Positions 5,324 to 59,566 of a stretch of DNA of 64,000 nucleotides are shown one piece after another. The stretch lies in assembly GCA_000004985.1 (NCBI GenBank), contig GG738859.1; one strand, 5' to 3'. This DNA comes from Naegleria gruberi. Its lineage: Eukaryota. Each line of letters begins with the position of its first letter. Positions within the stretch are counted from its first letter, which is position 1. The translations under genes were made by a program, and so were the position numbers. The notes beneath the pieces were generated by a model. It ran no database searches, was not told where the DNA came from, and was given only the letters and a program-made list of their open reading frames with translations.

Positions 5324-8300
5324 ATGCCACCATCACGATTTAGAAAGGTAATTGAGGATGATGAAGAGGAAATTCCTACTACAAGAGAGGATGTGGAGAG
5401 TGAACAAATCAAAGGTAGGAAAACTGAGAAGAAAGGAGGAATCAAAAGGAAAATTGTAGAATCTGATGATAGTAGTAGCAGTGAAGATGAGTTGGACGAA
5501 AGGCTTGAGTTGACTGATGAAGACGATATCGAATCTCTTTCTTCCAGAGATTCACCTGTGGTAGAATATGATGACAATGATGAGGAGATGGAAGAATATC
5601 CACAGTATAATAGATTATTGGAGAGTAAGTTTGCATACTAGCAATTCATATAAAATCTCTTATATTCAAAGTTGAAAAGGCTATTCTTGATAAACTTGAA
5701 GGAAGGTCTTGTGATCAGCAATTGATAATTCACTCCATTGAGATGAAAAATTTCAAATCATACAAGGATAACACACTGGTTGGTCCTTTCACCACTGGAT
5801 TAAATTGTATCATTGGATCTAATGGATCTGGAAAGAGTAATATTATCGATTCGATTTGTTTTGTGCTTGGATTTGAGTCTAAAGAGTTAAGAGCTAAGAA
5901 TCTAGACTACCTCATCAATGATCAGTGTTCATCTGATGAAGAGTCATTTGTCAAAATCAACTTTAATGTGATGAATGGTAAGAATGATTGTTTCAAGCAG
6001 TTTAGTATTCAAAGAAAGATTAAAAGAAATGATCACACAAGCTCCTACCATCTCTCTTCACCAAATGAGGAATCCAAAAAGATAACAAAAAAACAAGTGA
6101 GGGAATTACTGAATGAGTATGGAATTGACTTTGATTATCCTGATAGATTTATTGTTATGCAACATAATACCATAAAGATGGTAAAGCAAAACCCTTTAGA
6201 AATGCTGTTCCATCTTGAAAAATTATTTGGTACTGATAGAGTTCAAATTGAAATTAAGCAAGTTCAGGAAGATATTACAAAGCTCAGATCCGATATTGAA
6301 ATACATGAGAAAGAAAAGAATGATTGTGAAAAGGATCTAGAGTTATTAAAACCTATAGTCGAACACTATCAAAACTTTCAAAAGTTAGAAAAAAAGGTGG
6401 AGGAGACAAAAGCATCCATAAAAGAGAGTGAGCTGAAATGCCTAACATTCAAACTAGACAAAAGCAAGAGGGAGCTAAAGTCAATTACTTCTGAAATATC
6501 TTCTTTAGAAAGTAATCGTTCAAACTCAAAGATAGAAGAACAGCAACTGAATGAAAGTACTCAGAAACAAGTAGAGAAAATGGACACCACAGAAAAGGAA
6601 CTAGACCAGATAAAGAAAGTCACATCCAAGATTCAAAAGAATCTACTGAGGGTAAGACTTGAGAATGATTCCTACAATCAAAAAGTTCAGCACTTTGAAA
6701 TGGAATTAGAAAGAACCTCAAAGGAGTCTATTCAATTAGGAGAGGAAAAGAACGATTTGAATGTAATGAATTGTCATACAGAGGAAGATATTAAGTATTT
6801 AGAGAATTGCATTAACAGTCTTGAAAATGAGATTAATAGATTGACATCAAACATAGATGATGAATCTCAACAAATATTGATAGATTTGCAAAGAGAATTA
6901 AACGAGATAGTAACAAGTTATCGTTATACAGCATTAACATCTCGTAGTGTTAAATTAAGGGAATTGGAGGAGCAGATCGAAATTTTGAATCAAACATTTG
7001 ATCAAAAACAAAAAGAGAAAGTGGGCTTAGAAAATTATATGGAAGAAATTTCTGAATTGAAGAAATTAGCAGACTCAGAAGCCAGCATATTAGGAGATAA
7101 CTTGAAGAGAGTCCAAGAATCAATAGAACTCAAAAAGAAGCAGAGAATCAAGATAGAAGATGAAATATTTGACTTAGAAACATCCTCGATTCAAAAAGAG
7201 GAAGTTAATTCTCTTTTTTTAGATACCATAAAGAAAATTAGATCAGGGATAGATGGATGTTTTGGAACAATTCCAGAGATTTATAGAATCACTGATCAGA
7301 AATATGCAGTTTCCGTAAACTCAGTGCTTCATCCTTATTTAAAGAATACAGTAGTTGTTTCAAGCAGAGAAGTGGCATTGAAGGTAGTGAAGTTTTTTGA
7401 AAATGATCGTGCAGGATTGGTCAGTTGTGAAATTCTAAATGAGCTGAAGTTGTTGCCAAACCAATCCAGCACTAATCCTTTAGAATTGAAGCCACTTATT
7501 GAAGTTCTGGAATGTGAGGCTCAATACAGACCCTTACTAGAAAAGCACACCCAAGGATGGTTCATTACTGATTCGATAGAATGTGCAATGAAATACTCAT
7601 ATCATAACGGCAAAAGAAGAAATATTGTTACTCTCGATGGAAAGATATTTAAAAGCTTTGGAGAAATATCTTGCCACTATTCCAAAGATACTACCCCTCA
7701 CCAGATCAGTACTCAGTATTCTAAACTCAATACAAATTATTCAGATCATAACAAAGACATTGAGTATTTGTCTATTTTGAAAAAAAAGTTTAAAGATCTA
7801 GAGGAAATATGTGAAAGTCTCATCATGTCAATGAATGACATTAAGCAATCCATATCAGAAAAGGAAGTATTAACAAGAAATTATCAATCCCAAATCAAAA
7901 AAATTGGCTCTTCACTCTCAACTCTTTCCAGAAAATTGATATCTATCAAGAAGGATTTAGAGAGCAAACAGGAAACCTTCAAAAATACTATTTTAGCTCC
8001 AACTGAGGAAGCAGAGTTATTAGAAATAGAGACAATCAAGAAAGAATTAGAAATGAAAATCCATACTATTGAGAGTGTCGATAACAGTGGAAATTCATTG
8101 CCGAACCTCAAGAAAACCTTGTCAGAAAAACAAAAGGAGCATACTGTACTCAACAAGTTAAAAGAAACACAAAGCAAGAGATTGAATCAAATATCAGCTC
8201 TATTATCAAACCTTGCAGCAAAAAGAGAAAAATACACTAATGAATTAGATATTTTCAGAAAAGAAAACAATCAAGAGGAATTAGATTCATTAGAATCAGA

Positions 8301-15658: not shown

Positions 15659-16130
15659 TTACTGTTTTCTTGCCATCATTAAATTATGATGTCCAGAGTG
15701 GATATCACCAAAAACCCTGCAAACTCTCTGGCATGCATCGTCTATGGCAATTCTCTTCGCTTCCAATACTGCTTTACCTCTACTATCACATTGGAAATTT
15801 CCACAACCAATTTGTTCATGTGAGTTGAAGTTGTCGTATGTCATGGAAACAATTACACTCACACCTGCATGATAGGATAGAATGGTATTGTTTCCAATCT
15901 TCTTTTCCACCTCATCCACATAATCAACGTTAATATCTTTAATTTTCATTGTCAGTTTATATCTGTCAAAGTGTTTATACATGTCGGATTTCTCCTTTTG
16001 CGTTAATTGATGCTTTAGATAATTAATGATCATAATTTTAGCATCACAAACAAACCTTCTCAAAATACGTCATTCCCGAATCATCAATTTCAAATTCTTC
16101 ATTTGCTGATTGATCCAGTTGTTGTTCCAT
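15659..16130 (-). CDS. small Rad52/Mgm101-superfamily-like protein (~142 aa); 2 exons (16056..16130, 15659..16012), 43-nt intron with GTTTGT donor
   Basis: Spliced protein MEQQLDQSANEEFEIDDSGMTYFEK|HQLTQKEKSDMYKHFDRYKLTMKIKDINVDYVDEVEKKIGNNTILSYHAGVSVIVSMTYDNFNSHEQIGCGNFQCDSRGKAVLEAKRIAIDDACQRVCRVFGDIHSG. The block GxSVIVxMT...HEQIGCG...KAVLEAKRIAIDDACQR..R.FG parallels the Rad52 core (TAIVRVTL..G.YHEDIGYG...AAFERAKKSAVTDALKRSLRGFGN). Confidence 0.4.
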
Positions 16131-16154: not shown

Positions 16155-16848
16155 TTACAGTTTGTGTGCTGTCTTATGTTCACAGACGTACTTAATTTCC
16201 TCAACTCTTTCTAAGAATGATTTATAGAAACTGTCAGCAATATGTAAGAATGGTTGTTCTACATTTCCATCATCAGTATTTGTGGCAGTTTGGAAGAATT
16301 CCAATCCACATTCCCTAGCAAATTCTTCACCTTGATGTCTAGTTACCTTTTCAAAAGCACCTAGGTCACTCTTATTTCCTACTAATACACCTAATAGTGA
16401 TTTGTCGTGCTTCTTTTGACTGCTGTTACTAGTTCTTACACTCTTACACAATCTGTACCATTTTGTTAAATTTGTAAATGTTTCTGGATTGGTTGCATCA
16501 TAGACAATAATAAAAGCATTCAAACCATCGATCTAATTCCGATTATTAATCAATGATTAAAATTCCAACTGAATTCATTGTACATACATATTCGTTGTAT
16601 GATTTTTCATAAATTGATGATCCACTAATATCGAAAATAAATAGTTCTACTTGATTTTCCTTTGGAATTGAATCATGTTGTTGTTCATTTGTAACAACAG
16701 GAACATCAATTGTTTTTGTATATAAATCAGCTCCAATTGTCATTAAATATTGATTCGGAAATGTTCTTTCTTTGAACATTTTGATAAGACTTGTTTTTCC
16801 AACAGTGGAATCTCCGAGAATACCAACTTTACATCTGAGTTTAACCAT
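16155..16848 (-). CDS. IFT27: IFT27 / RABL4-like intraflagellar transport GTPase; 2 exons (16588..16848, 16155..16532), 55-nt intron
   Basis: MVKLRCKVGILGDSTVGKTSLIKMFKERTFPNQYLMTIGADLYTKTIDVP...VELFIFDISGSSIYEKSYNEY|IDGLNAFIIVYDATNPETFTNLTKWYRLCKS...LLGVLVGNKSDLGAFEKVTRHQGEEFARECGLEFFQTATN. Compare human IFT27 MVKLAAKCILAGDPAVGKTAL...VELFIFDSAG...LCLVYDVTNE.SF.N..KW...LPGVLVGNKTDL. The track start (16941) is TTG; the intron donor gtatgt sits directly after the EY codon. Confidence 0.65.
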
Positions 16849-16986
16849 CTTTATGTTCCGTTTAAAATGTTTGTTCGATTTTTTCTGTAAGGTTTTTGTT
16901 GTTTTACTTATTGTACTTTGTATGAGGATTTTTGGCGCCAAAATTAAATACTGTTAGTTGTTGGTTAATTTATTCGTGATTTCTTT

Positions 16987-19900
16987 TTATTTCTTCTTGA
17001 TTATTTCTTCTAGATCATAGAGTGCTTCCTTAGCACCAATACGTTTCTTTGGATTGGAGACTAGACATGATTTGATAAGGGATGAAATTCGTTTAGGTAT
17101 GTTTTTCAATTCGAATTGATAATCCATTTCCTTGACGAATCTATCTTCATTTTGACAAATAGCAATCACTGCAATACTGGCATCCATTTCTAATCCTAAT
17201 ATCAGACCTGCCATTAAGATTCCAAATTGGAAAATGTCCAGTCTATCTGTAACAATATTTTGCGCTGTTGGATTTTGGAAAAAGTATTCAGGTGCAATAA
17301 ATACGCAATTTGTTTTGGAATTTTTCACTTGAGCTTCTTCAAATGATGAGAGAAGAACCTGTTCAATGTCATCATGATAGAGAATTGTTTGAGTATTAAC
17401 ATGACAATGAACAATATCTTGTGTGTGTAAGTAATTGAGGGCTTCTGCTATTTCTGAGGCTAATCTACAAACTTGGAGAGTTGTGAAGATTGTTGGAGGG
17501 GAAGATGAAATACTGGTCACCACTGATAGGGTATTCTTATTATCTTCTTCATCGAGATATGGCTTTCTTTCAGTATTGGAAAGAGAATTGATATTTGAGG
17601 AATAGGATGGAGTTAAATCACTAACAGAAACGTTATTGGAACGAGATCTCTTATATAAGATGAAATAATCAAGAGTGTTCATTTCATAGAATGGCTCTAC
17701 TAAACAGTGCATATTGATCCATGAAAATTTGTGAATGACAGGGGCTATGGATTTTGTGTAATGACACGAATTGAACATGGAATCAATAATATTAAATCCA
17801 TTAAAATAAAAATCAATATTATCAGTTCCATTCGTGACAACATTATTGATATCATCCATATAATCATCGCAGTATGGTAACTTTACAATCTTTGGTAAGT
17901 TCTTTTGTTGAGAGTTAGTTTGTGGTACAATAGTCATACAAGAATTAATGGGTAAGCATGTTATCTTGAAAGTATGCTCAGAATTTCCATATTTTCTTCT
18001 TTTAGAAGCAAGTAGTATTTCCTTTCCTCTCTTTGATTCCATAAATTTAGTAATTTTCAATTTTTCTATACTAATAAATTGATTAATGGCCCTCATAGAA
18101 AAAACTTCTGGAGTAAAACCTAACTGTGTCAGTGAGAGTACTCTTCTTGATGGTTTGTACAAACCCTGTACCTCCATATTATCTAGTGCAGAGAAGGAAT
18201 CCTCTTGATCTTCAATGTCATCCAAAGGGGTTGGAAGTCTGAGGGCAACCAGATTGTGTTTTTTAGAACTTTCATTGGTTTGGTAAGGAGCTGAAGATCC
18301 TTTAACAGGAGAAAAATTAGATAATGAGTTGATCTTTTTCAAAATATCTAACTTGAAAGAACCATATTGAAGTACCATCATTTTCGAATAAATAGACTCT
18401 GCCTCCTCTTCAGTCATGGTAAATGCACTTGTTGATTGTGAAGAGCGTTGAAACAGGCTTATTTGCGTATTATTTGATTTATCAGTATCCCAATATATGT
18501 TTTGTACTCCTCTTCTCAAAAGCATTTCAATATCTTCAATTGTTTCATAGAGGTCTTTGGATAGTATTCTCTCCTCAGGATGCACTGTCAACATTTGATT
18601 AACAATAATATCGACCAATCTCTCGTATAAATCTAAAAACTCTGTATCATATCTATAGTTCAATAAAATCATCTCTCTAATGTACACTCGTTTGGCATGA
18701 ATAGAAGTGGCATTAATGAGAGTTTCTAAAGACAAATCTAAACCTAGTATTTGGTAGAACAGTATACCTAGTGAATAAATATCTGAGGAATTGATAAGTG
18801 TCTCAGATATCGATTCCTTAATGTTAATACTGCAAACACTTTCCAGATCATTGTCACTTGAAATGTTTAAATTCTGAGAGGCCCATATAGGCGATGAACT
18901 CCTAATATAAATATTCTTTTTTGGACCATTAGTGATAAGATCTTTTAGCTCAGGGGAGTGGTATTCTGTAATTGATTTTTGATCGAATGAATATCTATTT
19001 GGGAATAATTTAAAATCGTTAAGGAATTTGTTTCCAGTAATCATAAATGTTAAATGGATAGAACCTGATGGATTGGGTATGGAAGCACTTGGAGATGGAG
19101 ATCCACCTTGTCCATCAATGGCAACACAAGAACTCCTCCTAAAACTTTCTGAAGAAAGGGCAGCATCTGATAATAAATGTTGAGTTGCCATACTTCTTCT
19201 GATATTTTCACTCAGACTGGATGAGCCTGCTTTTTGTAATATGGAAATTTTTGGAAAAGGATCTGTCAATATGACATCATAAGTTTGTTCAGTTGAAGTT
19301 TGACTGGTCATAGAATCTGATCTCTTTTTTGAAAAAAAGGATCTTGTTACTCGATTATTTGTAGTATGTGGTACTAAGAATATGTTTTCAGGTTTTAAAT
19401 TATGATGGGAATATCCCAGTTGATGTATCTGTACAACAGGAGCTAATATTTGTTTGAATAGCAAGATAGCTTCCAGTAATGAGAGATTTTTCCCCAATGT
19501 CTTTTGTTTTGAGATTACTGAGCTTAAATTTCTGTCAAAGTATGGCATGACAAGCATGACAAGAACTTGTTGATTTCCAGATGGAGAATTGAAAAAATTC
19601 TTATCCACATAAATCTTGAAAAACTTGTCATCCACCTTCTTTTCATCTCTTCTCGTGTTATGAAAAGTCATATACCAATAATTTTTCAATTCTTCAATAT
19701 ATCTTTCCAAAGGGAAAGAACCTGATTGATGAGAGTAGCTGTACCATTCATTAATTGTGCATTTGAAGAATTTTACAACAACTTGTCTACTGTTTGATGA
19801 ATATAAAGAAGATGAAAATTGTTTAGCTTGTTGGAGATTGTTTTGACTGTTTGTAAATTCCGATGTTCCACAAGATTGTTTTTTGTGTGCAACTTCTGTT

Positions 19901-20409
19901 GCTGAATAGGTATTTCCATGTTTTTCATCCAATCGTTTTAATTTAGTATACTTTTCGCAAATATACCACAAATTTGCATTTGGCTCCTCTTGGGGTGGTG
20001 AATTATTGGTCCACAGTTTCTTGTTTCTTCTCCTCACAACGACATGATCCATATGGAAGGTAATTTTAGAGTTGAGAGATTTAAAAACATTGGATTTCTC
20101 GCTTATTGTGTGGTGATGTGTTTCACTTGATGATTCCAATGCACTAAATTTTGAATCGAGTGCAGCTGATGATGATGGTGATGGTGACTTGAATGATTTC
20201 CTTCCATTACTTGTTGTTGAAGGAGAATGTGATGATGATTGTGGTTCCATGAATTCTGACTCATCGGAGGTGCCCAACCAATTCTCATAATCATTTCCAT
20301 CATCACTCCAGCCATCATCATGAGGAATAAATGTCGTTTCACTCGAAGAACTATCAATATAATCAGAGAATGAATTTGCAATTGCAGGAGAGGATTTATT
20401 TTGTCCCAT
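16987..20409 (-). CDS. large (1140 aa) protein with N-myristoylation motif (MGQNKSS) and two degenerate protein-kinase-like domains (probable pseudokinase)
   Basis: ATG 20407-20409; single ORF. Domain 1: ...LGYSHHNLKPENIFLV (HRD -> HHN), ILTDPFPK (DFG -> DPF), YHSPELKDL, SDIYSLGILFYQIL, HPEERI. Domain 2 near the C-terminus: LHTQDIVHCHVNTQTILYHDD, FIAPEYF, TDRLDIFQFGILMAGLILG. The catalytic Asp is replaced in both domains. Confidence 0.5.
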   Translation of the reverse strand: MGQNKSSPAIANSFSDYIDSSSSETTFIPHDDGWSDDGNDYENWLGTSDESEFMEPQSSSHSPSTTSNGRKSFKSPSPSSSAALDSKFSALESSSETHHHTISEKSNVFKSLNSKITFHMDHVVVRRRNKKLWTNNSPPQEEPNANLWYICEKYTKLKRLDEKHGNTYSATEVAHKKQSCGTSEFTNSQNNLQQAKQFSSSLYSSNSRQVVVKFFKCTINEWYSYSHQSGSFPLERYIEELKNYWYMTFHNTRRDEKKVDDKFFKIYVDKNFFNSPSGNQQVLVMLVMPYFDRNLSSVISKQKTLGKNLSLLEAILLFKQILAPVVQIHQLGYSHHNLKPENIFLVPHTTNNRVTRSFFSKKRSDSMTSQTSTEQTYDVILTDPFPKISILQKAGSSSLSENIRRSMATQHLLSDAALSSESFRRSSCVAIDGQGGSPSPSASIPNPSGSIHLTFMITGNKFLNDFKLFPNRYSFDQKSITEYHSPELKDLITNGPKKNIYIRSSSPIWASQNLNISSDNDLESVCSINIKESISETLINSSDIYSLGILFYQILGLDLSLETLINATSIHAKRVYIREMILLNYRYDTEFLDLYERLVDIIVNQMLTVHPEERILSKDLYETIEDIEMLLRRGVQNIYWDTDKSNNTQISLFQRSSQSTSAFTMTEEEAESIYSKMMVLQYGSFKLDILKKINSLSNFSPVKGSSAPYQTNESSKKHNLVALRLPTPLDDIEDQEDSFSALDNMEVQGLYKPSRRVLSLTQLGFTPEVFSMRAINQFISIEKLKITKFMESKRGKEILLASKRRKYGNSEHTFKITCLPINSCMTIVPQTNSQQKNLPKIVKLPYCDDYMDDINNVVTNGTDNIDFYFNGFNIIDSMFNSCHYTKSIAPVIHKFSWINMHCLVEPFYEMNTLDYFILYKRSRSNNVSVSDLTPSYSSNINSLSNTERKPYLDEEDNKNTLSVVTSISSSPPTIFTTLQVCRLASEIAEALNYLHTQDIVHCHVNTQTILYHDDIEQVLLSSFEEAQVKNSKTNCVFIAPEYFFQNPTAQNIVTDRLDIFQFGILMAGLILGLEMDASIAVIAICQNEDRFVKEMDYQFELKNIPKRISSLIKSCLVSNPKKRIGAKEALYDLEEIIKKK

Positions 20410-20885: not shown

Positions 20886-23521
20886 ATGTCGTTTTTAAAT
20901 CCTCCAGAGATGTCAATTATTGTTACTCCAAGTTTAGATGAAATAGAACAGAGTGATTTGGAGAGGAAACAATTGGAGCAAGAGGAAATTGAAGCTGAAC
21001 GACTTCTTCCCGAGAGTTTTGATTTCACCAAGCTGAAGAAGCAATTATCATCGGAAAATATTGCAAAGAAATCCTTCACTGTGGATCCTGAGCAATTGAT
21101 AAACACTGTAACAATGTTACTTGAGACAGTGGAAAAGCAGGAAAAGAATATAAGGTCACTAGCAAAAGCAGTCGCTCAAAAAAGCGATTTTTCATTGAGC
21201 AGGCAGTCATCATTTAATACCGGTGTTATGATTACTGATCCACCAAAGAAGGATCTTCCATCCTCCAGACCAACCACTCCAAAAGTTGTACATAAGGAAA
21301 CTGTTTTTGTGAGGGAGGATGATCCTTTTATGAAGAACCAAATCCATAATTTAAACAATGAGTTTGCTATAATTCAAGAGGAATATACTCAACATGAAAC
21401 AAGACTCACAGAAGTCGAGGCTATTGTTCATGAACAATTAACAGAGGAGAAAATGAAAACTGAAAAGAAAATTGATGAAGCTAAAGAAATGATTACAGTA
21501 CTCAAATTTGACAAGGAGGAGTTGAGAAAACAAATGGATCAATTGAGACTGGATGTAAAAAAGGGATTGGAGGAAAATATTGAGTTTTTATCAAACGAAA
21601 TCAAGACACATTTTGATATTTCGAATGAAAATTTAGAAAGGCTTCAAGATGATTACAACCAAAAAATATCAGCCGTAAATTCTGACTTGGGATCCAAAAT
21701 TGTGGACATATCAAATAAGGTGGAATATAATTTTATGATATTTAAGGAACGAACGGAATCTCAAAAAAATGAAATTGAAGAACTAAAGTTCAGACTGACG
21801 AAACTGGAAGAAAATTTACTGAAAAAGATGGAAACCTTGTCAGATAAAATGGATAAGAATTTTCGATTACTGGAGAAGGATACCCTGAAAACTAACTACA
21901 TAACCAATCTGTTGTACGACGTATTTCAGCTGGATAAACATCTAATCACTGACTTGAATGATACATATGTACAGGAAAAGTTTCAAGCTAAGGAAGATAT
22001 TGGAAAATATTCCAAAATGAAAAAGGAGAAGAACAGACAAGAGTACAGAAAGATGTATACAGACATGTTAATGACCACTCCATGTTTTAAAACAATATAC
22101 GACAATTCCACAAACATTGTAAACGAGTTGAGATGGGAAACCAAATTAAGAATGGACAGAGAGGGTGACAAGGTGTTAGAAGAGTTTACTGATATTCGAG
22201 AATGTATGAAACGGTTTGTGACATTTCCAGAAGTGCGAGCAGCAATTAACGAGAATGAAATAGTGAGACAAGTAGTCAATACTGTGGGTACTCATGAAAA
22301 ACATATTGATACAATATTTACAAATTTTTTACCGAGAGAAGAGGCTTGGGAAGCCCTCAAACAAAAAGCAGATGAAAAGAATGTAGAGTTGAAAGCTGAT
22401 CGAAAGATTGTCAATGCTCTATTTGACTATTTGAACGAGAAATTGAATACTATTCTTGGGAAAACATCTACAGAAGAAATGATGGTATCTATTAAAAAGC
22501 TTGAAGAGAAAATCAAAAGTAAGGCAGATAAGCAGGAACTTATAGAAGCCCAGCAACCAATTTACCCTCCAAATATAATTAATATCGTGCGAAAGGATAT
22601 TTCTACAGAGGATCTAGTGGTAGGAATGGGTGTGAGTCAACCATGTCTCATGGCAAAAGGAGAATCCGAACAAAGTCACTCCAGTTCGTACAGATGCCTT
22701 AGTTGCAGTCGACCACTCTCTTCCAAAACGCCTTCAACAGCACCATCCGGTTCTCCTCCAAAAAGACAAAACTATTTAACTAACTTTGATCCTCTTCCTG
22801 TTCAAGCCTTAAGTGGAAATGAATCTGCTAGAGGAAAGTTGGGAACTACGTTGGGAGATCTTCAACAACAATTTCAACAACAACTTCAATTACAAATCAA
22901 TCCAAACACTAGCATTCAATCTGATAGTCCAAATACAAGTCCAAAGAAGGGAGAAAAAGAAAAACCAAACCTTATTCCACCAAGTAGCCCATCTGACTTT
23001 TTCGAAATACCCAAACTAAATTTGAAAAAAGTAATGATATCTGCAGAGTAAGTTTCTTAACACATTTTAAACTCTTACATTTAACAAGAATGGAAAATCC
23101 AATCTTTAAATATACTATTAAGAGCTCAGGTCGAAGTGCAGAAGAAGAATATGAAATGGTATCAGCAAGACGAGACAATACTGACCTTGATAAACCTCCT
23201 TCACAACTTCAAAATCAAAGAAAATCTCCAGACGATATGAGACCTAAACCACCAAAGAGTGCACCTCAAGGAGGGCAGAATAATTTTATGAGATATTCTC
23301 TGAAGAGTAATTTGGATCTTTCGAATAAAGTGCCAGGAACTGCAAGAGAAAAAGAACAGGAGAAAACATCTTCAGTAATGCCACACTCTGCAAGGCCAAA
23401 TTCTGCTAAAGAGTACAGGCTGAGAAGGAATGAAGGTCCTATACTTGTTGTAAAGCCAGCAACTGCAGCTCTGAAAAATAGACTCCCAAAGCTAAATGCA
23501 AGTCAAGCTTTAATTAAATAA
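20886..23521 (+). CDS. coiled-coil protein (~864 aa); 2 exons (20886..23047, 23089..23521) joined by a 41-nt intron
   Basis: ATG 20886. The 721-aa track ORF ends ...MISAE at a TAA that lies inside a gtaagtttcttaacacattttaaactcttacatttaacaag intron (23048..23088). Splicing gives ...MISA-E-MENPIFKYTIKSSGRS... in frame with track ORF 23090..23521. The middle is heptad-rich. There is a Cys cluster YRCLSCSRPL. No family assigned. Confidence 0.45.
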
Positions 23522-55209: not shown

Positions 55210-56343
55210 ATGTTCCCATTTACCGACGTTGAGACAAAGGAAAGATTGGCTATCGAGAAGAGAAGACAAGCAGAAGAGGAAAGAAGGAAGAGAATTCTTG
55301 ATCCAAAGGCAAGAACAATGGGTTTAGATGTTGCTGGTATACAATCACAAATTGAAGAAAAGGAGCAAATAAAGAAGCGAGAACAAGACCGTGATAGATA
55401 TTTCGACCAAGCCTCCCTTGTTCATGCAAAGGTTGCCAACATTATGGAGAAGGAAATGCATCAAACTAAAAAACAAGTTTATAAGGAAGTCAATGATTTT
55501 AGAAAAAACGAACAGTTACCTCATACAAGAAGGGAATTTGATTTAAATGATCCTGATGAATTGAAAAAGAGTAGACCAATCAGAGTTGGTGACTATGATC
55601 CTAGCTTGACGATTTCAGGAGGGCAAATTATGCACGGAGAGGACTTGGGTCGTGAAGAAAGACTTAAAGCTCAGCAAGACCAATTGAAGTGTTGGGTCTC
55701 AGAACAAGTCAATGAAAAACAAATGGTAAAGGAAAAGGAAGATTTGGAAAGAAAATTATTCGAGCAAAAGGAATTGGAAATTCAAAGATTGACCTATGAA
55801 TTAAGGGAAAAAGAGAATATGATAAAACTTGAAAAGGAAAGAGAAAGAAAAGAATTCAACGTTGAACAATGGAATGACAAGGAAGAGAAAGAAAAGCTTC
55901 AAAGAGAGAAAGAAGAATTAGATAAATTAGAAGAAATACAGAATCAACTCAATAGTCATCTCCTTAATGAGGCATTCCACACAACTCTCAATGTTAATGA
56001 TCCTAATAGATTTAGACCAGATCACTTCAAGCATATGAGACCAGATCAATACGAACACATTGAACAAGTAAGACAAGAACAACTCAGAGAATTACAACAA
56101 AAGAGAGATACGGAAAGTTTAAATCAACAATATTGGGATAAGAAACGTTTGCTTGAAACAAAGATGGCAGGCTTACAATTAAGAGAACAAGAACGAGCAA
56201 AGAAGCAGCAAGCAGCTGAACTTTTAGAATTACACAAAAGGCAAGCTGAAGAAAAGAAACAAAAGGAAAAGTTTGTAAATCAAGTGTATGCTAATGAGGT
56301 CACAGAGGATTTTTTCAATCGTTTTGGAACAAGCAGTCGTTAA
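55210..56343 (+). CDS. charged R/E/K-rich coiled-coil protein (377 aa), tentatively RIB43A-like (flagellar protofilament ribbon family)
   Basis: ATG 55210; single ORF. Highly charged helical sequence (ERLAIEKRRQAEEERRKRILDPKARTMGLDVAGIQSQIEEKEQIKKREQDRDR...), ending ...TEDFFNRFGTSSR. The family call rests on recollection of RIB43A-like proteins and is not verified. Confidence 0.3.
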   Translation: MFPFTDVETKERLAIEKRRQAEEERRKRILDPKARTMGLDVAGIQSQIEEKEQIKKREQDRDRYFDQASLVHAKVANIMEKEMHQTKKQVYKEVNDFRKNEQLPHTRREFDLNDPDELKKSRPIRVGDYDPSLTISGGQIMHGEDLGREERLKAQQDQLKCWVSEQVNEKQMVKEKEDLERKLFEQKELEIQRLTYELREKENMIKLEKERERKEFNVEQWNDKEEKEKLQREKEELDKLEEIQNQLNSHLLNEAFHTTLNVNDPNRFRPDHFKHMRPDQYEHIEQVRQEQLRELQQKRDTESLNQQYWDKKRLLETKMAGLQLREQERAKKQQAAELLELHKRQAEEKKQKEKFVNQVYANEVTEDFFNRFGTSSR

Positions 56344-56479: not shown

Positions 56480-57007
56480 TTACGTTAAATTGATAGATTT
56501 TGGTTCCAAACTGACTTTTTGTGAAACAAGTGAATAAAATTGATTCATCTTTTCATTCAATGCCTTTTGGTAATTATCCAAAATATACACATATTTGTCT
56601 TGAAGACAGGCTTGATTTGGATCATCTTTTTTTTGTGTTGTTGTTGTTGTTGATGTTGCTGTGTTATTAGTAGTAGATGATGTGCCTGCTGCAGCAGTAG
56701 ATGATGATTGGACTTGTCTCTTCTTTTTCTCTCTTGTTACTGTTGGTGTAGGAACAGGGATCGGAGAGTTAGATTCCTCAGGTGTTGTTTCAGGACTTGG
56801 TTCTTTTCTCTTCTTTTGTGATTTTGGTGTTTTTGGTGCTTTTGGTGTTGTTGATGCTTTTGGTGGTTTTGTGAGGGGAGCCTCTACACATTCCAATCCT
56901 CTCTTTTGACAACGTTCACAAGGTCTCTTCATATCACAACGAAGGTGAGCCTTCCTACATCCAGCACAAGCTCTTCCCACTTTCCCTCGCTTGTTTTCTC
57001 CTCTCAT
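56480..57007 (-). CDS. Zn(II)2Cys6 binuclear-cluster (Gal4-type, fungal-type) DNA-binding protein
   Basis: First ATG at 57005-57007 gives MRGENKRGKVGRACAGCRKAHLRCDMKRPCERCQKRGLECV, i.e. CxxCx6Cx5CxxCx6C. A basic T/P/K-rich linker and a C-terminal helical region follow. The track start 57058 is non-ATG. Confidence 0.6.
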   Translation of the reverse strand: MRGENKRGKVGRACAGCRKAHLRCDMKRPCERCQKRGLECVEAPLTKPPKASTTPKAPKTPKSQKKRKEPSPETTPEESNSPIPVPTPTVTREKKKRQVQSSSTAAAGTSSTTNNTATSTTTTTQKKDDPNQACLQDKYVYILDNYQKALNEKMNQFYSLVSQKVSLEPKSINLT

Positions 57008-57242
57008 TTTTTTACTATTTAAAAATAAAAAATACTTTTCACTACAATCTATTCGCACCTAAAGCAAGGATTAGGAAACGATTCTTTTTGCTTGCTTTTC
57101 TCGTCGCACATGTTTTTTGTTTCACACTAATTTTTTGTTTTAGCTCATTTCTTGCTTTAGTATCTTTCTGAGGTGTGTAGTTTGTAGTGCTATCAAATAA
57201 CGTGGTATTTGCTTAAAGAGTATTCATTTAAATATTAAAATT

Positions 57243-57424: not shown

Positions 57425-59566
57425 TTATTTTTCTTTTCTCTTGGCCATCTTTCTGTCGAGGGCACCCAAAACTTTCTTTCTCAAACGAATATTCTTTGGT
57501 GTAACTTCAATAAGTTCATCTTGTTGGATATAAGTCAAAACTTCTTCCAATTGGAATACTCGAGGTGGAGATAATCTGATAGTATCTTCCTTACCTGCTG
57601 CTCTCATGTTAGTCAAGTGTTTTTCCTTACAAGGATTAACTTCAATATCATTTTCTCTACTGTGTTCACCAACAATCATACCTTCATAACATTCAGCTGA
57701 TGGATGAATGAAAATATTACCTCTAGCTTCAAGTGGACCTAAAGCATAAGGTGTACCTTTACCACCTTCAAGTGAAACCATGACACCCTTTCTAGTCTTT
57801 TCAATAGGTCCCTTGTATGGTTCATAATCACTGAAAATGTGAGTGAGCATACCTTCACCACGAGTATCAGTTCTGAATTCAGAAGCATAACCAATGAGAC
57901 CACGAGTTGGAACTCTATAAAGTAATTTAGCCTTAATACCATCAACCTTATAATCAATCATTTCACCCTTTCTCTTAGCAAGCTTTTCCATACATTGAGC
58001 AGCCAAACCATTATCAACATCAATTGTAACTTCTTCAATTGGTTCCAAAATATCATCCTTACCACCACCTTCAACATCCTTAAAGATGACTCTTGGAGGA
58101 GAAACTTGGAATTCATAACCTTCTCTTCTCATATTTTCAATAAGTACAGCCAATTGCATTTCACCACGACCCATAATTTCAAAAGCTTCACCCATTGGTT
58201 TAATTGTTAAACTGACGTTCATTTCAGCTTCCTTCAATAAACGAGCACGAAGTTGAGTTGCAGAACATAATTTACCTTCCTTACCAGCCAATGGACTGTC
58301 ATTGACAAGGAACATTACAGACAAAATTGGAGGATCAATTGGTTTAGCTTCAATTGGAGTTGTAACTTGTTTAACATCACAAACTGTATCAGTAACACTG
58401 GCCTTTGAAATACCAGCAATGGATACAATAGAACCAGATAAAGCTCTCTTTACAGGTGTTCTTTGCATACCAATTCTTTGCATGACTTGTAAAACTTTAC
58501 CTTCTTCTAAAACTTCACCAGTTCTACTCATAACTTTAACTCTATCACCTGGTTTAACGGCACCACCATACATTTTACCAGTAACAATTCTACCGAAAAT
58601 TCTATCATAATCAACTGTACTAACAAGCATTTGGAATGGACTTGCAGCAGATGGTCTAACTTTTGGACATGGAATATGTTCCAAAATTGCTTCAAAGATT
58701 GGAGCTGTATTCTTTCTTTCATCCTTTTCAAAATCTTTAACTGCCCAACCACTCTTGGCACTGGCATATAAAATTGGGAAATCCAATTGTTCATCATTAG
58801 CTCCCAAATCAATAAATAAGTCATAAACTTCATTTTCAACTTCACCTCCAATACGAGCAGTTTCACGATCTGATTTGTTGAAAATAACAATTGGTTTCAA
58901 TCCATGTTCTAAGGCCTTTCTCAAAACAAACTTTGTTTGAGCCATAACACCTTCAGTAGCATCAACAAGTAAACAAACACCATCAACCATTGACATGACT
59001 CTTTCCACTTCACCTGAAAAATCAGCATGTCCTGGAGTATCAACAATATTGATAATATATTCACCCTTATATTGAACTGATGTCAATTTAGCCATAATTG
59101 TAATACCTCTTTCCTTTTCCAAGTCCAAACTATCCATTGTACGTTCTTCAGCATCATCTTTAATTGTACCTGTTTGTTTTAATAAACAATCAATCATTGT
59201 TGTTTTACCTGTATCGACGTGAGCAATAATTGCCAAGTTACGAATATTCTTTACTGTGACAAATCCTTCGGAATCAGCTTCAGATTCAACTTGAGGAATA
59301 TCTAAAATATTGATATAATTGGATCCAGATAAATCAACTTTGGAATCATGTTGACGTAAATTTGAGGAGAAGAAACGTTCTTGTTGTTGGGAAAGTAATC
59401 TTTGTAAAAGAGAATGTTTTTGGAGGAGATTAGAGTGCTCAAAGTGGAACCCTTGTGAAAAAACAGATGAGGCAGCCCCGATACAAGGTTTTGACTGTGA
59501 TGATGAAGAAGCAATCTTCCTGACGATACGACTACCACTGGCGACAAGGTTTTTAGAGTTGAGCAT
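57425..59566 (-). CDS. typA: BipA/TypA translational GTPase (bacterial type) with ~110-aa N-terminal organellar targeting-like extension
   Basis: 713 aa, single exon. [29 protein letters not shown]...[83 protein letters not shown]... plus the BipA-specific C-terminal domain (...[42 protein letters not shown]...). The N-terminal [27 protein letters not shown]... is Ser/Arg-rich and presequence-like. Confidence 0.85.

Follow-up and report, generated by a model that had tools for sequence, protein, structure and literature searches.

Does the small GTPase encoded at positions 16155..16848 of the window (the whole stretch of 64,000 nucleotides of Naegleria gruberi DNA analysed here) represent IFT27 (RABL4), or is it another member of the Rab family? 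The initial annotation, made from the letters of the DNA, had named the locus IFT27 and had concluded that the source organism builds flagella and is neither a dictyostelid nor Entamoeba nor a Dikarya yeast. The name was supported by PDB matches, a contest of sequence profiles and bootstrapped trees, and the conclusion about the organism was correct, N. gruberi being an amoeboflagellate, i.e. a heterolobosean amoeba that transforms into a flagellate and makes its basal bodies de novo. The species is identified by two other ORFs of the window, each identical to an N. gruberi RefSeq protein, and the low G+C content (0.31-0.38) fits. The occurrence of the gene in a flagellum-building organism, with a RIB43A gene in the same window, is what is expected for IFT27. 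Taking the evidence together, we are highly confident that the locus is the N. gruberi orthologue of IFT27, a Rab-like small GTPase with a putative role in IFT-B.

To read the gene, two ORFs have to be combined. The ORFs, 16546..16941 and 16155..16523, each carry half of a small GTPase, and removal of a 55-nt intron (16587..16533) joins them in frame. The resulting gene has two exons on the minus strand, with the start ATG at 16848..16846 and the stop TAA at 16157..16155. The outer coordinates thus stand as first annotated, while the 208-aa product then given does not, as the splice of the two ORFs yields 212 aa. Exon 1 encodes the P-loop GDSTVGKT, the switch I Thr37 and DISG (G3), and exon 2 encodes NKSD (G4), the G5 region, a PF..IA..FY motif and a long C-terminal helix. 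The splice sites of the intron are canonical and the reading frame of the gene is intact. Comparison with the Willaertia magna sequence confirmed the intron position: exon 1 ends after ..NEY, and the tblastn alignment places the Willaertia boundary, between ..EQY and IDG.., at the same codon. In an environmental Naegleria-like contig the read-through ORF leaves the family right after NEY and continues with VC, consistent with the GTATGT donor.

Table. Coordinates of the IFT27 gene and of the other features described in the window.
Feature	Position	Strand	Description
Rad52/Rad22-family short ORF	15659..16063	-	directly downstream of IFT27
IFT27 exon 2	16155..16532	-	codons 88-212 and TAA stop
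IFT27 intron	16533..16587	-	spliceosomal, 55 nt, GTATGT...TTAG, phase 0
IFT27 exon 1	16588..16848	-	codons 1-87; from ORF analysis and Willaertia comparison
36-nt stretch GTTACA...CCAAAG	16660..16695	-	codons 52-63, VTNEQQHDSIPK; intron in XP_002679076.1, most likely coding
Kinase-like gene adjoining IFT27	16987..20409	-	1140 aa, Ser/Asn-rich, identical to N. gruberi XP_002679077.1
ORF with weak DUF4795 match	20886..23051	+	721 aa
RIB43A gene	55210..56343	+	PF05914, E 4.4e-109, 365 bits, profile positions 2-372 of 372
ORF with Zn(2)-Cys(6) domain	56480..57058	-	PF00172, E 1.3e-9
TypA/BipA translational GTPase	57425..59566	-	GTP_EFTU, EFG_C and BipA_C domains

The 212-aa product corresponds to the N. 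gruberi RefSeq protein XP_002679076.1, which is labelled only "small GTPase", has 200 aa and lacks the 12 residues VTNEQQHDSIPK, being otherwise identical. The 36-nt segment that encodes these residues is in frame, with similar sequence, in Willaertia, in N. lovaniensis and in the environmental Naegleria-like contig, and in Willaertia it is part of contiguous coding DNA. That it is a true intron is unlikely, considering its in-frame conservation in three relatives, its weak GTTACA donor and its length of only 36 nt. From these alignments the segment is most likely coding and would form a lineage-specific loop between strands 2 and 3, a region of low pLDDT in the AlphaFold2 model. Since the loop is conserved in frame in the relatives and is uninterrupted coding DNA in Willaertia, the 212-aa gene model is probably to be preferred to the RefSeq model of 200 aa.

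The protein has a small GTPase domain of the Ras/Rab superfamily in which the nucleotide-binding motifs G1, G3 and G4 (GDSTVGKT, DISG and NKSD) are intact. Both motifs that had been quoted in favour of IFT27, VELFIFDxxG and GVLVGNKxDL, are present, as VELFIFDISG at residues 67-76 and as GVLVGNKSDL at residues 135-144, and no sequence in the IFT27 alignment deviates at Thr37 or in the PF motif. In the AlphaFold2 model (pLDDT 81) the protein has a GTPase fold, and residues 180-210 form a helix. Two loops peculiar to the heterolobosean IFT27s, the first at about residues 52-63 and the second at about residues 121-131, are predicted to be poorly ordered. The C-terminus, ..EEIKYVCEHKTAHKL (..YVCEHKTAHKL), carries no CC, CXC or CAAX prenylation motif, as had been noted, the last Cys being residue 204 of 212, 8 from the end, so the protein is without a lipid anchor. 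In switch II the residue after the DxxG glycine is Ser in N. gruberi (DISGSS) and likewise in Chlamydomonas (DTAGSD), and T. brucei keeps Gln67; loss of the catalytic Gln, considered as a hallmark of the IFT27 family, was rejected, as T. brucei IFT27 retains it.

Among the rival explanations, the one that survives best holds that the protein is a lineage-specific or generic heterolobosean Rab acting in membrane traffic, with a superficial likeness to IFT27. It draws on the Pfam match (E 3e-32), which is to the general Ras family only, on fold searches, which place ordinary Rabs first, and on the RefSeq label. Against it speak the absence of the C-terminal prenylation cysteines that membrane Rabs need and three lines of sequence comparison. 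The first is the PDB sequence search, in which the best relatives were the Chlamydomonas IFT27 chains 8ruy_Q and 2yc2_C (97.8 bits, E 8e-27), with an alignment that covers residues 3-205 and thereby includes the C-terminal helix; a Rab2 (75.8 bits) came next and Rab28 scored 73.4 bits, so that IFT27 leads any PDB Rab by 22 bits. The second is a profile contest between an HMM built from 16 proteins named IFT27 by their sources, with zero heterolobosean sequences among them, and an HMM built from 16 Rabs. The N. gruberi protein scored 160.8 bits on the IFT27 HMM and 115.5 on the Rab HMM, a lead of 45 bits for the independent IFT27 profile, whereas held-out control Rabs and Asgard Rab-like proteins favoured the Rab HMM by 45-190 bits. 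A profile that included the N. gruberi protein itself retrieved almost only proteins named IFT27, a test that is partly circular.

The third line is phylogeny, which had been proposed at the outset as the means of separating IFT27/RABL4 from the Rabs. Trees were built by neighbour-joining only, from 183 trimmed columns with 300 bootstraps and a limited sample of non-Naegleria Rabs. The N. gruberi, Willaertia and N. lovaniensis proteins formed a group with 100% bootstrap, which nested with the IFT27 proteins of Chlamydomonas, Volvox, vertebrates, echinoderms, hemichordates and dinoflagellates. The IFT27 clade received a bootstrap of 96% when outgroup sequences not drawn from the database were included and of 99.7% with database sequences only (19 versus 22 sequences). 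In the database, the closest relatives were those of Willaertia magna (71% identity) and N. lovaniensis (80%) over the whole length; beyond Heterolobosea, the closest proteins were either named IFT27 (Noctiluca, fish) or were unnamed proteins of flagellates, e.g. Trichomonas. A word-indexed reciprocal search with Chlamydomonas IFT27 reached green algae only and was uninformative on Naegleria. A chance match is excluded by the E values of the Pfam Ras and Chlamydomonas IFT27 matches together with the RefSeq match spanning 100% of the product. PDB margin, HMM contest and neighbour-joining tree all set the protein apart from other Rab families and join it to IFT27 as defined by experiment; the sequence evidence thus supports its placement with IFT27/RABL4, and a generic heterolobosean Rab is very unlikely.

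Another cilium-linked Rab-like GTPase, namely Rab28, RABL2 or IFT22/RABL5, is less likely again. In the PDB search Rab28 scores 73.4 against 97.8 bits, the N. gruberi protein has no CAAX box, and it did not group with Rab28 in the tree with outgroups from outside the database; nor was IFT22/RABL5 the closest protein in either sequence or structure.

The heterolobosean relatives also show how the gene and its surroundings are organised in this lineage. According to tblastn, Willaertia magna IFT27 has two introns, one shared with N. gruberi and a second inside the P-loop codons; the latter intron (gene on contig 6001..6720) is absent from N. gruberi. The N. lovaniensis IFT27 model begins with MFKERT, so that 24 N-terminal residues, among them the P-loop, are missing, and is probably mis-annotated. 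A short ORF of the Rad52/Rad22 family lies directly downstream of IFT27 both in N. gruberi and on the Willaertia magna contig (6753..7172), and its presence in both genera indicates that local gene order is conserved. The upstream neighbour differs: in Naegleria it is a large kinase, in Willaertia a kinesin. It is scarcely credible that the locus is a copy of IFT27 in decay or without function: the two loop insertions relative to other IFT27s would fit decay, but the frame, the splice sites and the GTP-binding motifs are all in order, and conserved intron position and synteny accompany the full-length identity of 71-80% with the Willaertia and N. lovaniensis proteins.

RIB43A is an axonemal microtubule ribbon or inner protein family. 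The RIB43A-like gene, at first called only tentatively, proved to be a full-length strong match to this family; its ORF is intronless, encodes 377 aa and is identical to N. gruberi XP_002678969.1 (UniProt name FM152). This makes it a second flagellum-specific gene of the window, and some 38 kb separate it from IFT27. Several other genes of the window were observed in passing. The product of the large kinase-like gene contains two Pfam protein kinase domain stretches, the best of which is C-terminal (residues 974-1130). The ORF at 56480..57058 encodes a 'fungal' Zn(2)-Cys(6) binuclear cluster domain in this heterolobosean genome, and the gene at 57425..59566 encodes a TypA/BipA translational GTPase of bacterial type, which is extended by about 105 aa at its N-terminus and may be targeted to an organelle. 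The DUF4795 match of the 721-aa ORF is weak, its 24 bits lying below the family cut-off of 34.8 bits. Elsewhere the window carries housekeeping genes of the usual eukaryotic kind.

In other organisms, IFT27 and IFT25 form a stable heterodimer, IFT27 has little affinity for nucleotides and little intrinsic GTPase activity, and within IFT-B1 the IFT27/25 pair sits on coiled coils VIII-IX of IFT81/74. IFT27 is required for both anterograde and retrograde transport in trypanosomes and for BBSome-linked export in mammals, and non-ciliary roles have been reported in Chlamydomonas. By analogy with this Chlamydomonas, trypanosome and mammalian work, N. gruberi IFT27 would bind GTP or GDP and would pair with IFT25, and the predicted docking site of the pair in the IFT-B1 core is formed by the C-terminal coiled coils of IFT81/IFT74. 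The protein would presumably be made while the amoeba builds its flagella and would ride on IFT trains within IFT-B1, a role in flagellum assembly that is expected from the same comparison. The two loops might serve a partner or a mode of regulation tied to flagella made de novo and on demand, or else the protein might act in the non-flagellated amoeba, an amoeba-stage role of heterolobosean IFT27 being suggested by the non-ciliary roles in Chlamydomonas; we regard these as very unlikely.

Published surveys describe IFT27/RabL4 as limited to ciliated lineages and without a prenylation site, and place it already in the last eukaryotic common ancestor, so an IFT27 gene in Naegleria was to be expected. 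Its presence in N. gruberi fits this view of an ancestral protein that tracks cilia and matters little beyond bookkeeping. That N. gruberi has flagella was already known, and the gene is an ordinary IFT27 of a sequenced species. Apart from the probable correction of the gene model, nothing here is new, and the only gap is that the name IFT27 is absent from the public record; in the accessible part of the RabDB supplement, N. gruberi is listed only for Rab14. The practical gain is hence that XP_002679076.1 would be better named IFT27 than 'small GTPase', and that its gene model should probably be corrected from 200 to 212 aa.

Compared with known proteins, Naegleria IFT27 stands apart from the conventional Rabs (Rab1, Rab2, Rab6, Rab8) and from Rab28, which, unlike it, have C-terminal Cys prenylation motifs and the catalytic Gln. 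In the searches these proteins score at least 22 bits below IFT27, and on the Naegleria protein the Rab profile lies 45 bits below the IFT27 profile. With vertebrate IFT27/RABL4 (BBS19) it shares VELFIFDxxG, GVLVGNKxDL, an unprenylated C-terminus and the same clade, at an identity of about 30%. The residue after DxxG is Lys or Arg in vertebrate IFT27 and Ser in Naegleria, and for the vertebrate role in export of the BBSome and hedgehog components no Naegleria counterpart is known.

The best reference is IFT27 of Chlamydomonas reinhardtii, with structures together with IFT25 (PDB 2yc2/2yc4) and within IFT trains (8ruy chain Q). Identity between the two proteins is only about 33%. Between strands 2 and 3 Naegleria IFT27 has an additional loop (about 11-12 residues), and before strand 5 it has about 6 additional residues (SNSSQKKHDKS region); both insertions are predicted to be poorly ordered. 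In other respects the Naegleria protein is, like its Chlamydomonas counterpart, a Rab-like GTPase of similar length, and over residues 3-205 the two can be aligned from end to end. They share G1, G3 and G4, a Ser that replaces the usual catalytic Gln after the DxxG glycine, a conserved Cys that is not terminal at a C-terminus free of prenylation motifs, and the PF..IA..FY motif followed by the long C-terminal helix.
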